From: an uncultured Methanosarcinaceae archaeon
Lineage (GTDB): Archaea > Halobacteriota > Methanosarcinia > Methanosarcinales > Methanosarcinaceae
DNA length: 64,000 nucleotides
Assembly (NCBI GenBank): GCA_963721455.1
Contig: CAVRJG010000051.1
Span: 54,820 to 118,819, forward strand
Direction of reading: 5' to 3'
Of this stretch, positions 45,492 to 64,000 are shown piece after piece; within the stretch, counting starts at the first letter, position 1, and each line of letters starts with the position of its first letter. Below the pieces are notes generated by a model. The model ran no database searches and was not told where the DNA came from. It worked only from the letters and a program-made list of their open reading frames with translations. The translations under genes were made by a program, and so were the position numbers.

Positions 45492-47702
<2,211 letters not shown>

Positions 47703-58359: not shown

Positions 58360-58770
58360 TTTTCATGGGAAAGATATGCTGTCTAAGTCTAATGGCCGCG
58401 TCTTCATTCAGGATGGATATCTGAGGCTGGCACCGACCAGCGGAAGCTTGTTCTTCCTTCCATTGTGGCTCTTCAGCGCATAATAGATCAAAGCTTCAAT
58501 TCACCTCAGAACAAAGAAAAATTCAAACTGCCTCCCGGGATTCATGATATTACAATTAGAAACGGCCAATTGATCGTCTCCTCACAGTAATAGACATTCG
58601 CGTAAATCCTTCGAGTTACTTTATTTCTCCAACCAACTTGGTGAATGCTCTCCAAACCAAGATTTAACCCGTCAATTGTTCTTTCAATTGTGACCATGGC
58701 GGCGTTCAGTACTTGGTTTTAAATATACCTAACCCGGCAGAGCCGGAACCAAACAGGGTCAAAATGAAGT

Positions 58771-59702
58771 ATGATGCTCGGCATGAGCATCGAACTATTA
58801 ACAAACCGTCATTCGAAACAAATTGCTGGAATCATCTCCTGTTATGACCGCATATTGATTGTCGGTACTCTTCCAAAAATTTGTTATGCCGCAGGCTTGA
58901 CGTCGTTTCTTTATCAGAATCAAACACGGATTTTCGATTACCCAAGATTCGCTGAACCATTTCGGAATCAGAAATCTCACACGTACTGCCATTCATACCG
59001 TCAAGCCGGACAATATTGCTACTTTTCTCGGACGTAAAATAAACGGCAATTATCAGGACGAAATCGGAAACCGCTTTAACATCCGCATCGAGGGCACTCG
59101 TATCAAGCACTCGATGGGACCTGTTTCGATTAAGATGTACGATAAGTTCTCTCTTATTCTTCGAATTGAGACCACTGTCAATGACGTCTCCTTTTTTAAA
59201 CACTACCGTGAGGTAGAACATCGCGATGGCAGAAAGGAGACCAAATGGGCTCGCATGCAGAAGACCATCTACAGTCTTCCTGCACTGTGCGAGCTTCTCT
59301 CTGCCGCCAATCGCCGTTACCTTGAATTCATCTCTACGATCGACGATCCTCGTTCCGGGAATGATAAACTCAACAAGTTGTCCAGCCCTGCGAAAGACAA
59401 CGATCGATCTTTTCCCGGTTTCAATTTCTTTGATCCGGACGATCAATCTCTGTTTGAAGCTATTGCCCGAGGCGAATACAACATCAGCGGCTTTCAGAAC
59501 AAAAATCTTCGTCGCTATTTGGCAGATAAAAAACCCGGCCCAAATTTCGCGTCAACTCAAACGCCTCCGTCTTCACGGACTGATCAAGAAAATCGGACGA
59601 ACCTATAAGTACTATCTGACTTCTTTCGGCAAACAGGTCATAGCAACTGGATTAAAACTCAAGCAACTTTTCATCATCCCTCAATTGGTTTCAGCTCGTT
59701 GA
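58771..59702 (+). pseudogene. putative mobile-element protein (YDK..LRIE core, C-terminal wHTH), frameshifted and probably internally deleted
   Basis: Three ORF pieces: SCYDRILIVGTL; KMYDKFSLILRIETTVNDVSFFKHYREVEHRDG; ISRQLKRLRLHGLIKKIGRTYKYYLT. Confidence 0.7.
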
Positions 59703-60079
59703 GTAGAAATATTATGACCGTTTTGCATAGGATGTGTTTGTATAGGTACTATAGGGCAGCTCGGTCTGATTGGCTCCCATCTTCCATACCCCAATAGCAT
59801 TTCCTCCCTATACGTCCAAGGAGCTTGTTCATCTTAATCGACACTTGATGATAAGATGTTTGCGCGGCCCAAGATCTGGTGCCCCCACTGAATTCATCGA
59901 AGGCCAGCCCATGTCGGCTGAAACAAATCTTCGACTTTTTACAGAGTTCCCACGTCAAATTCAATCATGAGGACACGGGGGCTATATAGAGATAGAGGGC
60001 ATACTTTGTTTTTGCTACAGCATCAGCACTCCCTGATTTCGTTTTCTGAAGCTGCGGTATTTGCAATAGGAGGTTTTTA

Positions 60080-60984
60080 ATGGCTATTCGACACTGTCAG
60101 ATCCTACTGGTCGCGTTTGCAATGGCTATGTTATTCTCTAATGCGTCGGCTTCTTCTAAGCCCCTCCTAGTGGCCCTCCCATTTATGTAGCCGAACGAAA
60201 CGGGGCCAAGGTCTATATTCTCGGAGAGCATCACCCTCCGGCTCTAAATGGCTCACTCCAACGATAAAATCGGCGCTCATGGAGAGCAAAGAACTTTGGC
60301 AGGAGGACCCCACAGAGCAAGCATTTAATCAATCCTTGTGGGAAGAACTTGGATACCGTAAGCACGGGACGCTTTTTGACGATTTGGGTGAGAATGGCTA
60401 ATCGGTGAGGAAGACCGCGCAAATCTATGGTGTCAAAGAAGAGGATCTTGCGCGGCAACGGACCTGGTTTTCTGCATTGACGCTTGTCTGTGCATGGCTT
60501 GCCAAAGTAGGAATGACTTTAGGACAGACCGGGAATCCGGAGGGCGTCATCTCGGAACTGGCGACAAAAAACCACATACCAATTCACTCGGAAATGACGT
60601 CTGATGATTTTCCGAAACTCCTGTCAGCATTGCCCAAGAAAACACAGCTTCAATACCTCTCCTACGAACTGGACTATATTGAGCGAGGCACAAATAAAAC
60701 GGGCTCAAAAGAAACAGATGCGATGAAGGCTGGGCTGTGGGCCAACTGGACGAATGTGCACAATCTCAAAACAAATGCGCACTCGTTACCATGACCTTTA
60801 TGTGGCTCTCAACGTCGTGCGAAATGGTGAATGGGTTGAACGAATCGATAAAATGTTGAACGAAGGGGGGGTACACTTCATTGATGTCGGAATCAATCAC
60901 ACTCTCGGTCCTGACAGCATCCAAGTGCAGCTAAAACGTCGCGAAATCCAAGTTCGCCGTATCCGTGAGTCCGGCCGCAGCTAA
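60080..60984 (+). pseudogene. TraB/GumN family protein, several frameshifts
   Basis: Signal peptide after AGGAGG SD, KVYILG, RNGEWVERIDKML...FIDVGINHTLGPDSI. Confidence 0.7.
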
Positions 60985-61266
60985 ATTGATTGAGATTGCC
61001 CATTCTCGCGATTGCCGGTCACCGCAAACCAAACTCCCCTGGATACATGCCATAGGGGAAACTACGAAGCTGCTTCGGATGATCTCTCTTTTGCTAAAAT
61101 TGACGTTTCTCAACGCGACTTCATGGGAGTTAGAATAAATCTGTCCAGTATTTAGAACCAATCCAAGGCAGGAAGGCGGATTATTGGCTGATTAGAACAC
61201 AGCGACAAGTATAGTCGGAATAAAGTGCCTTTGGTCGGGAAATCCGGCCGTCCAGGCTCCTCAACA

Positions 61267-61295
61267 AGTTCTGATAAGTATGGCTTATGTAAACT
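61267..61295 (+). other. dif-like XerC/XerD site (left)
   Basis: AGTTCTGATAA-GTATGGC-TTATGTAAACT. Confidence 0.75.
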
Positions 61296-61475
61296 TCGGT
61301 CTTTGAATTTGCCCATTAATCGAATTCGATGGTATTCTATGTCAGAATTGGGGGTCTAGAAAGGGATTTCGGGCATGCCTATAATGCAGCATGCCTATAT
61401 TGCAAAGCGGATTAGCCACCATCGGAATGTCTGGGCTGCAAAGCTGAAGACAATGCGGATGAGTTGCTGATCTCA

Positions 61476-63053
61476 CTAAAACAACATCCACTCATCATCC
61501 GGTTTGGCAGGAGTTATGGGCGGAGCCCTTGAAGGGAGTCCAAGACAGGTCAGTATCTTTTGTATTGCATCGGGTGGATGAATCGCGCATAGAACCCTCA
61601 TTTTTGAGCCACAGCGGGGACAGACGAGGACGTCCAATTCGAACACACGTTTCAAAAGCTGAGCCCATGAATAATTTTTCGGCTTTTTGCCCCGCTTTGG
61701 CTTGGTTTCAGCCTCTTCGGTTGTCGAAATTTCGGCTTTCGCCGAGCAACCCGGATGCGCCGGCGCAATATCGGATTTATCTTCAGGAACAATGTATGGC
61801 CTGAGACTTGAGGCAGGGGCCAGCACGCCATAATAACGAACGATATTGAATCTTGGCGGTGGCACGAGCGCCACAAGCCGTTCCATCAATTCCATCGGTT
61901 CATAGATCACAGCCGTTGTCCCGTCATTCCAGCGGCGCTTGAGTTTGTAGCGAAGCCTGCCGTCCGGCAAGAGCGAAAGTCTCTCATTTGAGATCGGGCC
62001 GCGTGCAGCATATCTTAGAAGCCGCTCCAATCGAAGACGATCGCGTGACGGAACGCAGACTCCGGCATGGACGCTGAAGCCTTCAACCATTGCGCAGCAG
62101 CGTCCAGATTTGGCTTCGGCTCCCTCGAAATCCGGCTCAACGCCGACTCTCACAATACGCCTGCCTGCGCGCGGTCCCGTCGCTACGCGCCCCGCTACGG
62201 ATGCGCTATAAAGTTCGGCAAGCAGCAGTTCATCGCGCCGAAGGGGATCGGCCTCCTCCGGATCCGCCTCCGGATCGATGTCCCGCCGCTTCATGAGGCG
62301 CATCACACGCCGATGAACGCGATCCGCAACGCGCGCCACTTCGGCATCGCTCGGCGGCCCAACATGCAGGAACGTCAATTCGTTTTTACTATTCTCTATA
62401 TAGATCCCATCCAAGGCCATAACATGGCAATGGGGGTCGAGATTTAAAGCGTCGGAGAAGCGCTGAATGAAACCGACGGCGCCGCAGCGAGCCTTGCGGT
62501 TGGATGAGGCAATGCCGGCCCTGCGGCGAATTGAGGAAAAGACAGTGCGCACGAAGATCTGCGCTACATCCCTGACAAGGGAAGAATCATAAGCAAGACG
62601 ATAGCGAAGAGAAAAAGGAACAGAAAGCACCCACTGCCGCACCGGGACTTCGGGAAATACATGATCCACGAGATGAGCGGCCGTTTCCGCCATGCGCCGT
62701 CCGTAGCACGACGGACAGAAGGCCCTACTTTTGCAGCTGAAGGGAACAACGCGGTCCATGCCGCATGCATCGCAGTGAACCCGGATAAAACCTCGCTCTA
62801 AAATGCCGCAATCAAGAAAATCACGTAGGTCATTTCCAACGAAGCCGGGAACTACTCGCCCGCGCTCCTGTTGGCGCGCCAGAAAAGATTCGAGGTTTTC
62901 AGCCACCACACGGTAAAGAACGGTCTCTTCAGGACGGCGCGGTTGATATTCAAAAGCGGCTTCGCAGACGCTGAAACCCTGACCTTCAAATAGAAACTCT
63001 TCATCAGCATACTGCTTTCCCTTGTTAAAAACCGCCGATGGACAGAGGGCCAT
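61476..63053 (-). CDS. IS91/ISCR-family rolling-circle (HUH) transposase
   Basis: Zn-binding CDAC..SCKSRAFCPSC, PVRQWVLSVP, HUH motif PHCH, LLRYAAR, VRYYGV, CPRC. Confidence 0.92.
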   Translation of the reverse strand: MALCPSAVFNKGKQYADEEFLFEGQGFSVCEAAFEYQPRRPEETVLYRVVAENLESFLARQQERGRVVPGFVGNDLRDFLDCGILERGFIRVHCDACGMDRVVPFSCKSRAFCPSCYGRRMAETAAHLVDHVFPEVPVRQWVLSVPFSLRYRLAYDSSLVRDVAQIFVRTVFSSIRRRAGIASSNRKARCGAVGFIQRFSDALNLDPHCHVMALDGIYIENSKNELTFLHVGPPSDAEVARVADRVHRRVMRLMKRRDIDPEADPEEADPLRRDELLLAELYSASVAGRVATGPRAGRRIVRVGVEPDFEGAEAKSGRCCAMVEGFSVHAGVCVPSRDRLRLERLLRYAARGPISNERLSLLPDGRLRYKLKRRWNDGTTAVIYEPMELMERLVALVPPPRFNIVRYYGVLAPASSLRPYIVPEDKSDIAPAHPGCSAKAEISTTEEAETKPKRGKKPKNYSWAQLLKRVFELDVLVCPRCGSKMRVLCAIHPPDAIQKILTCLGLPSRAPPITPAKPDDEWMLF

Positions 63054-63353
63054 TTATTTCGCTCCGTAACCCGCAGGCCTGAAGCTGCACTATGACTAAT
63101 AGGCCATGAGGTTCATTGAGCGAAAAATTTATTGATCTTTGTTTCTGTCAGGCTTTTTCAGAAGGTGGAGCGGTTCGTTCGGCAACGATCTGTCGGTTCT
63201 CCTGTCGAGCGGCTTTCAGGCAGCGGTGACCACACGCGTGCGTTCGCCTCTGAAAATCCATCGATTCTCAAAATCGACTTTGCACTATAGGTGCATTATC
63301 GAAATTCCCAAATCTTTTATAAAATATTCTCGTCAGCAAGATTCTGGGTTCTT

Positions 63354-63382
63354 AATTTACATAACCAACTATTATCAGAAGT
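63354..63382 (-). other. dif-like XerC/XerD site (right, inverted)
   Basis: Minus strand ACTTCTGATAA-TAGTTGG-TTATGTAAATT. Confidence 0.75.
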
Positions 63383-64000
63383 TCCCATGATGTCAATCGG
63401 CATGGATCGGCAGCTTGTCCTGCCTATCCTTTTTTTATGCTCTCCGGTTCCGGCCAGGAATGTTTCGGGTATCGCCGCTGCAGTTCTCGGCGGATAGCCG
63501 GGTAATGATTTCCCCAAAATCCGGCAAGATCCTTTCGTTACCTGCACTGCGCGCCCATTGGGGAACAGATGAACGGTTAAGGGAATCCGCCCTGCGCAAA
63601 TGACAGGTGTGGCATAGGTGCCAAAACTGGACAGACCGCGGACTCTAATCCAGGGAAATCCAGAATTTTCATAGTGGATTCTAACGATACGCCCGGATTT
63701 CAGTTTGATGCGTTCCGGCGTTTCCCGCCGGAGGAGCAGCCCTCTGCCGGTCTGTCAGCTTATCCGTTAGCACATCCACAATCGACGAAGCAGCCAATTC
63801 TGCCAGGCTGCGTTTCCCGGCGCACAACAACCCCACTGTTGCACGTATTTCCTGTTCCGATGCCTGCGCGGGATTTTCCTGGGGGAAACACTGCAAAACC
63901 GGGACAGCCTCGACCGAAATGCCTGCAGGGAAGAAACGTCATGAAACGGGAGAGGGTCCCTGCTCAAGACTGCGGATGCAAGATAGGGAGGCTTCTTCAG

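Follow-up and report, generated by a model that had tools for sequence, protein, structure and literature searches.

Copies of host dif arms just inside the oriIS end of a clade of IS91/ISCR-type transposons: a putative XerC/XerD-binding accessory

The stretch of DNA analysed here, called the window, comprises 64 kb of contig CAVRJG010000051.1 in assembly GCA_963721455.1, to which all window coordinates refer, and it carries in its last few kilobases an IS91/ISCR-type transposase gene lying between two inverted dif-like sites, each with one XerC-type and one XerD-type arm. An earlier note on this DNA had suggested that the 2.1 kb between the sites may be a unit of its own. The apparent enclosure of the gene is the juxtaposition of two neighbouring oriIS ends in opposite orientation, one belonging to a complete transposon (element A, 61209-63133) and the other to a solo oriIS-end mini-element (element X, 63280-63431); the two inverted sites seem to enclose the gene because A and X each carry one site between terminus and gene. 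On the basis of sequence comparison, we consider it rather probable that these are two separate IS91-type ends, each with a site that copies the arms of the host dif, and that XerC and XerD putatively bind this site and act in cis with oriIS. The site itself would probably be a host XerC/D-binding accessory of oriIS. In the following, loci carrying element DNA or sites are labelled L and genomes G, with G001 to G004 being Acidobacteriota genome bins.

The two 29-bp sites stand in the window as the earlier note had read them; corresponding arms are identical at 10 of 11 positions, the 7-bp spacers are unlike, and the D-like arms point inward. A repeat search reported the pair as the top inverted repeat (I1) of the region, and the core pattern TCTGATAA-N7-TTATGTAAA has exactly two matches in the window, both without mismatch; in shuffled controls allowing up to three mismatches, the mean was 0.33 matches, and two or more matches were obtained in 5 of 100 shuffles. 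Between the terminus and the outer edge of the site there are 58 bp in A and ~49 bp in X, and the same position and orientation of the site are found in L002, L003, L005, L006, and L007. Relatives carry one site per element, just inside oriIS; it follows the gene at a distance of 120-310 bp, and its XerC-type arm is the one closer to the terminus. Upstream of the gene, where the second boundary of the supposed unit had been placed, no site is present in any of nine related loci. In a set of 60 loci chosen by protein and having at least 300 bp of downstream sequence, 26 show a generic dif-like motif with an oriIS-like heptamer no more than 95 bp after it, compared to 1 of 60 in the reverse-complement control of the same scan. 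Nine of the 119 loci obtained in an exact pattern scan of contigs are Acidobacteria ends with an oriIS terminus; the many Pelagibacteraceae matches, which fall in one conserved coding stretch, were set aside as chance.

The same arms with a 7-bp spacer are also seen in many Staphylococcus species and some Bacillus-group genomes (L017, L031, L042, L046, L052, L062, L072, L078, L085, and others; L014, L022, L092), where no oriIS-like terminus follows. Two spacers, tcgatga and taggccg, recur among them, and L022 has two sites 75 bp apart. A further local accumulation is found in L003 (4751-6104), with four dif-like sites in the 1.4 kb downstream of the transposase: two belong to identical ends 761 bp apart, and the two others have TTCTGTAAA arms in opposite orientations.

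Judging from homology, element A is an ordinary IS91/ISCR unit with an oriIS end and a terIS-side end. The family assigned to its transposase in the earlier note is borne out by Pfam matches (Y2_Tnp, 9.1e-29; Zn_Tnp_IS91, 6.6e-17) and by the best matches in a plasmid collection, which are annotated as IS91 family or ISVsa3, with ~40% amino acid identity to ISVsa3/ISCR2 over 92% of the length. It also agrees with NCBIfam, in which the nearest models are ISCR_clade_Ia (369.8, cut-off 925) and transpos_IS91 (95.7, cut-off 125). Because both scores fall below the curated cut-offs, the transposase is placed in a separate clade, with members in Acidobacteriota, Myxococcota, and Spirochaetota genome bins. 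The closest relatives were found in Acidobacteriota bins, where full-length homologues of 521-537 amino acids share 76-54% identity with the transposase.

The window's genome contains a single copy of A, so its boundaries were taken from other genomes. The DNA of L005 is 96-97% identical to A, apart from a 689-bp internal deletion in L005. Homology with L002, L004, L005, and L006 opens at 63127-63137, which leaves ~80 bp between this boundary and the start codon, on its upstream side, and a further ~220 bp before the upstream site is reached; the shared terIS-side sequence opens with ATAAATTWTTCGCTCAAT in the window, L002, and L006. In the other direction, homology passes the downstream site and stops at 61259-61261 (L002, L007) or 61207 (L005). 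The copies thus run through the downstream site to oriIS and stop on the far side at ~63130-63137, and the two sites do not bound a 2.1-kb unit as had been proposed. The oriIS end that the earlier reading could not recognise is present at 61209-61229. Its sequence is close to GGCGTTTATTCTTCCTATAC, the ISCR2/ISVsa3 terminus seen in the downstream regions of two ISVsa3 genes (L012 and L013). The same terminus occurs in L005a and L005b, each with another flank, and a soil-metagenome contig matches the window from 61206 on, its preceding 248 letters not being on the window. Nine aligned ends finish in ...CCTATCC or ...CTATAC and then diverge fully, with TT coming next in eight of them; when the last C of the terminus is counted, these bases read CTTG, CTTC, CTTT, or CTTA in eight ends and CATG in L007. 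Contigs of two soil runs extend the match on the terIS side to 63182 and then stop; the 49 bp from 63134 on are either a shared flank or read-through past terIS. The flanks of A are unlike each other, and A has neither terminal inverted repeats nor a target duplication. The 11-bp direct repeat noticed earlier downstream of the gene is real; it falls within a box of 16 bp, conserved among related elements, that is duplicated in tandem here (61373-61388 and 61389-61404, 94%).

The upstream site, regarded earlier as the other boundary, sits in X, which from these alignments is the oriIS end of a separate L006-type element and not a boundary of A. The window from 63272 to 63431 is 95% identical to the stretch after the L006 transposase remnant, including the spacer. 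X lies ~150 bp beyond the terIS side of A in opposite orientation, opens at the conserved box TTGCACTATAGGTGCA, and closes at ...GTCCTGCCTATCC. Homology of the adjoining helicase-like gene to G002 opens exactly at the X terminus, and soil-run contigs have loose ends at 63426 and 63431. Such solo ends, 150-190 bp long, are common. In G002, X-type solo copies with 84-95% identity lie on C18 (five, including one behind the L006 transposase remnant), C6 (two), and C17 (one), and two A-type solo ends lie on a contig other than C18 and C6. The five X-type copies at G002:C18:310000-340000 (L238, L239) are spread within 30 kb in one orientation, with unrelated unique genes between them, and solo A-type ends open at element positions 1738-1745, corresponding to 61389-61396 of the window, at the box. 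All ten matches of the pattern search in G002 are on the reverse strand of their contigs (four on C17, namely dif and three element sites, and three on C18), a bias that suggests strand-specific insertion. Both flanks of each window site are collinear with one parent, A with L005 and X with L006, and there has therefore been no inversion or exchange between these two window sites.

The arms of these sites were compared with those of dif in the genomes holding the closest relatives. A search of G001 to G004 with ATAA-N6/7-TTATGTNAA gave 27 matches, consisting of four single sites with a 6-bp spacer, 18 oriIS-end sites with a 7-bp spacer (by flank reading), one ambiguous site, and four unrelated ones. 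The single-copy 6-bp-spacer site, one per genome with the sequence ACTTCTGATAA-GATATC/GATATA-TTATGT(A/C)AACT, is likely the chromosomal dif of these genomes. In G002, the only one of the four tested by skew, the cumulative GC skew peaks at the candidate (left +0.045, right -0.039). G001 to G004 all contain XerD-family genes, and an xerD-family gene is found ~2.5 kb from the dif candidate at G002:C17:116785-117649 (in two frames) and at G004:C50:64079-64942. Each window site differs from the Acidobacteriota dif arms at 1 of 22 positions, as seen for the A site against G001 and G003, and the arms of Acidobacteriota elements match the dif candidates of G001 to G004 at 21 or 22 of 22 positions, which upholds the earlier description of the sites as dif-like. 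A similar bipartite motif, with other XerC-side arms, is located 13-31 bp inside oriIS in the more distant relatives from Myxococcota and Spirochaetota, and their host genomes have a single 6-bp-spacer dif candidate each; in G025, a complete chromosome, the candidate coincides with a local skew maximum. Four of ten Myxococcota/Spirochaetota dif candidates (L327, L344, L345, L347) lie 260-510 bp from a contig end, and a repeat adjoining dif could be the cause of the nearby contig ends.

In the Myxococcota and Spirochaetota relatives, the XerC-side arm of the element follows the host dif. Arm types were predicted before the dif candidates of another ten genomes had been retrieved. Elements with the arm A(C/G/T)G(T/C)CCG... 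reside in hosts with A(C/T)G(T/A)CCGATAA as predicted in five of five cases (8-10 of 11 bases), and elements with ACCAC(C/T)GATA reside in hosts with ACCAC(C/T)GATAA in three of five (9-10 of 11), with L287 (6 of 11) and L324 (7 of 11) as the misses. Across the host-dif comparison set of 24 loci and 22 host dif candidates, three distinct arm types are followed, and 14 of 22 sites match the XerC arm of their own host at no fewer than 9 of 11 bases. When arm matches out of 22 were scored, the mean best score to the own-host dif arms was 16.46, which was reached in none of 20000 host-label shuffles, a figure that overstates the evidence since elements and hosts are related. From these comparisons, the site is a conserved part of the oriIS region in this clade, with arms that match the host XerC and XerD arms and a spacer that is usually 7 bp and varies by lineage. 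This transposon lineage may exploit Xer, the wider idea of the earlier note, and the tracking of host dif makes this more likely. Two loci in different phyla, L287 (Gemmatimonadota bin, 6 of 11 to its own dif) and L323 (Spirochaetaceae bin), have nearly identical sites with the same spacer, for which recent transfer or a binning error could be responsible.

A possible exchange of ends at the site is seen in L139 (G002:C10). Starting at the 3′ end of its transposase and continuing into the first spacer bases, this locus is A-like in 14 of 14 alignment windows of 30 columns (88-100%), and from there to the terminus it is of the L146/L155 type (26/30 and 24/28, vs 12/30 and 16/27 to A). The mosaic breakpoint thus falls inside the 7-bp spacer, which is the pattern expected from strand exchange in the central region. 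When inner and outer end segments were clustered, L139 was the only convincing mosaic; the oriIS filter omitted A-type ends, and most groups are too diverged. As to the source of a recombinase, a Phage_integrase domain was detected in 2 of 139 flank open reading frames (ORFs), the longest of 644 around 80 loci; the flanks of these 80 loci are unrelated housekeeping genes. The clade thus appears generally to encode no recombinase of its own.

Several observations limit or weigh against the proposed reading and are considered together here. The XerC arm of the own host is missed by L287 (6/11), L266 (5/11), L268 (6/11), and L283 (7/11), the XerD-side arm is degenerate in Myxococcota elements (6-9 of 11), and 2 of the 24 loci have no site (L170, where the contig ends, and L252). 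The GC-skew check covers 2 of the 22 dif candidates, and the interrelation of elements and hosts means that the shuffle test overstates independence. The window's genome has no matching dif type and no XerD-family match at E<=1e-20, and its site may be out of context. No such motif was found in two ISCR2/ISVsa3 copies (best score 9/13), so the feature is not general to ISCR. With respect to exchange, L139 is a single clear mosaic, which could also have arisen by template switching where the short arms are identical. Moreover, direct repeats with identical spacers persist at distances of 761 bp (L003), 1.8 kb (L005), 3.2 kb (G003:C598), and 11.6 kb (G002:C17), and therefore argue against efficient resolution.

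A mechanism can be proposed in which transposition would follow the ordinary IS91-type route, copies would end at oriIS beside CTTN-like target bases, and short box-to-oriIS derivatives would spread in one orientation in the manner of miniature inverted-repeat transposable elements. Host XerC and XerD would bind the site in cis with oriIS. Their favoured role would be recombination between sister or tandem copies arising from replicative or one-ended transposition, similar to that at cer/psi or res, and 7-bp spacers that differ by lineage would prevent recombination of a copy with dif or with another copy. As a second choice, the proteins could have an architectural part in the assembly of the oriIS nicking complex. 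The data do not support integration at dif. We also put forward, tentatively and as a possibility somewhat short of even, that the clade recruits the host dimer-resolution machinery through a site near oriIS that copies dif, co-evolves with it, survives in 150-bp derivatives, and serves a step of the life cycle. The steps that Xer might serve include resolving tandem or one-ended products, swapping ends between elements, and licensing the nick at oriIS.

It is also conceivable, if rather unlikely, that the transposase itself recognises the motif as a subterminal element, in the form of double-stranded DNA or of a single-stranded hairpin and without any part for Xer, and that the resemblance to dif is a coincidence or stems from a common preference for AT-rich inverted half-sites. 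The oriIS of IS91 and IS801 is described in PMC13181058 as having two imperfect subterminal palindromes, the last 82 bp being sufficient for transposition, and the motif studied here falls within the terminal ~90 bp. A hairpin with a free loop would also account for arms that are conserved around a variable spacer, a weak hairpin can be formed by the site of A, and solo mini-elements keep the motif. However, the arms in Acidobacteriota equal the host dif at 21-22 of 22 positions and the XerC-side arm shifts with two further dif types, for which a site of the transposase offers no reason. The folds of the sites are no better than those of shuffled sequences (z -0.6 to -1.85), and the X site is unfolded in the minimum-energy structure. 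In addition, the arms of L262 (Myxococcota) can pair at only 4 of 11 positions, counted by eye, yet the XerC-side arm matches its host at 11 of 11.

A further explanation, which we regard as quite improbable, treats the site as attP-like, such that double-stranded circle by-products would occasionally be captured by XerCD at dif or at the site of another copy, with products so rare or unstable that they would go unseen in assemblies. According to PMC13181058, single-stranded circles are the active form of IS91, and double-stranded circles also form and are inert for TnpA, which does not insert them; this would leave a niche for such capture. The match of the arms to host dif, the mosaic at the spacer, and the four Myxococcota dif candidates close to contig ends, where repeats often break assemblies, can be read in the same direction, as can a mini-element in G001 that lies 4.5 kb from dif in the same orientation. 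Yet ordinary long ORFs lie between this mini-element and dif, and its boundaries, at the box and at oriIS, are normal. The vicinity of the dif candidate was scanned over ~5-15 kb on each side in 4 genomes, or over a shorter stretch where a contig ended, and over up to ±1.5 kb in 15 others, and in none of the 19 does element or transposase DNA adjoin it, so that the clustering of copies at chromosomal dif to be expected on the earlier reading is not seen. No tandem ori-ter junction was found in any locus read. Neither an oriIS-terIS circle joint nor an inverted joint at the sites is listed for the contigs of four public runs, where rare forms cannot show; this comparison used assembled contigs and covered 58728-59759, 61206-63182, and 63327-63431 only, and the share of sampled words present in a run was at most 0.23. 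That the 2.1 kb between the inverted sites is itself mobilised by Xer, either as a dif module with a transposase as cargo or as a minimal element whose circles are put at dif by XerCD, is scarcely tenable: inverted dif-like sites with unlike spacers, arms matching host dif, and one mosaic breaking in a site would suit it, whereas copy boundaries lie off the sites at oriIS and on the terIS side, nine of nine related loci have no upstream site, both flanks of each site are collinear with one parent (L005 for A, L006 for X), and dif candidates are free of element DNA over the stretches scanned in 19 of 19 genomes, four of these candidates being the ones 260-510 bp from a contig end.

The features of the region are collected in Table 1. 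The tail of the contig differs in composition from the first 50 kb; in a k-mer comparison, the change from a host-like to an Acidobacteriota-like profile falls between 57.5 and 61.5 kb. Neither the DNA flanks nor the TraB-like fragment was found in 20 relatives of the window's genome that were searched. The contig tail is probably a mis-join or a foreign island, and at least the last 3.6 kb (from ~60.4 kb, possibly ~57.5 kb) probably lie outside the binned genome. Of the two chromosomal gene pieces flanking X, the one at 63180-63282 is fibronectin-III-like by eye, and the helicase-like 3′ end is HrpB-like by a reading of its C-terminal peptide.

Table 1. Coordinates of features in the distal part of the 64-kb window
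Feature	Position	Strand	Remarks
TraB/GumN-like gene fragment	60405-60984		Acidobacteriota-like tail
Complete IS91/ISCR-family element A, ~1.93 kb, oriIS end to terIS-side end	61209-63133	-	Homology limits and end alignments
oriIS terminus of A	61209-61229	-	In gene orientation ...GGCACTTTATTCCGACTATAC, then TTGT; same terminus in L005a, L005b
dif-like site of element A	61267-61295	+	AGTTCTGATAA-gtatggc-TTATGTAAACT; XerC-type arm outermost (toward oriIS), 7-bp spacer, XerD-type arm innermost
Tandemly duplicated 16-bp conserved box	61373-61404	-	Relatives' consensus TTGCACTATAGGTGCA; repeat family D3
Transposase gene, 525 aa, intact	61476-63053	-	HCH residues 208-210, RYYG 405-408
terIS-side end of A	63054-63133	-	Imperfect subterminal palindrome 63057-63075 / 63107-63125; inverted repeat I6
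49 bp ending GTTCGTTCGG	63134-63182	.	Common to window and contigs of two soil runs, not four Acidobacteriota loci
Acidobacteriota-type chromosomal gene fragment	63180-63282	+	91% over 104 bp to G003:C107, inside long open coding stretch
Solo oriIS-end mini-element X (150 bp)	63280-63431	+	Box, dif-like site, terminal ...GGCAGCTTGTCCTGCCTATCC; 95% over 160 bp to L006
dif-like site of mini-element X	63354-63382	-	ACTTCTGATAA-tagttgg-TTATGTAAATT; L006 downstream end has same spacer, same position
3′ end of helicase-like chromosomal gene, frame-broken	63432-64000	-	84% over 569 bp to G002:C17:288761-289333

Two other stretches of the window were observed in the course of the analysis. A second repeat at 58728-59759 has sharp ends, a high depth in soil and wetland runs, and broken ORFs without a Pfam match; runs X1, X2, and X8 contain 599 extra letters at 58972/58973, and the window copy is therefore internally deleted. 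This repeat sits at the composition change and may be the point of a mis-join. At 45500-47500, a 2-kb stretch also scores as Acidobacteriota-like by k-mer and may simply be a GC-rich gene.

Compared to known IS91-type systems, the elements resemble IS91, IS801, IS1294, and ISCR (closest ISCR2/ISVsa3) in the HUH/Y2 transposase, the N-terminal zinc-binding domain, the ISCR2-near terminus, and the unlike ends. The T-rich CTTN-like bases at oriIS are comparable to the CTTG/GTTC targets reported in PMC13181058. The difference lies in the bipartite host-dif-copying site just inside oriIS, which is absent from the two ISCR2 copies. A link between IS91-type elements and Xer- or integron-like tyrosine recombinases is known: tyrosine recombinases in IS91 transposons are placed in an integron-like subgroup (bioRxiv 10.1101/542381) and an IS91 transposase gene is located next to a XerD-type gene (PMC11194056). 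In contrast to such members with their own recombinase, the clade described here would generally lack one and carry a copy of the host dif arms instead. No publication linking the oriIS of IS91/ISCR elements with Xer or dif was found in a literature search whose scope left subscription journals, TnPedia and ISfinder texts, and supplements outside.

Among the systems that depend on host Xer, the pdif (dif) modules of Acinetobacter plasmids consist of a gene flanked by inverted XerC/D-like sites with conserved arms and unlike spacers. The sites studied here differ in that they are not module boundaries, lie in a chromosomal context, and are each part of a transposon end; they are 29 bp long with 7-bp spacers, unlike the 28-bp pdif sites with 6-bp spacers. 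Integrative mobile elements exploiting Xer (IMEX), such as CTX, VGJ, and TLC, have an HUH-type initiator, no recombinase of their own, and a dif-like site, and they sit at chromosomal dif between dif-like direct repeats. The dif-like site and the near absence of integrase domains in the flanks (2/139) are shared with IMEX, whereas the present copies end at oriIS and terIS and none is located at dif (0/19 genomes); with boundaries off the sites, neither the dif-module nor the IMEX category proposed earlier applies. The plasmid sites cer/psi and the transposon res sites act in cis, and a site-specific recombinase uses them to resolve tandem or cointegrate products of replication, with central regions of 6-8 bp and arms fitted to host XerC/D. 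The present sites are similar to XerC/D sites in having two inverted 11-bp arms around a 6-8 bp centre and arms fitted to host XerC/D, and they differ from cer/psi and res in the persistence of direct repeats that lie close together and share a spacer.

IS91 and ISCR elements are important gene movers. To our knowledge, few of them have been shown to transpose, no host factor has been established, and the mechanism is poorly known. The pair of sites in the window cautions that a transposase gene flanked by two dif-like sites may simply lie between transposon ends that happen to be close together. A cis site that follows the host dif across phyla points to XerC/XerD as a host factor of IS91-type elements. 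If this is true, it would constitute a third mode of Xer exploitation beside IMEX phages and dif modules, one that operates away from dif and is new for transposons.

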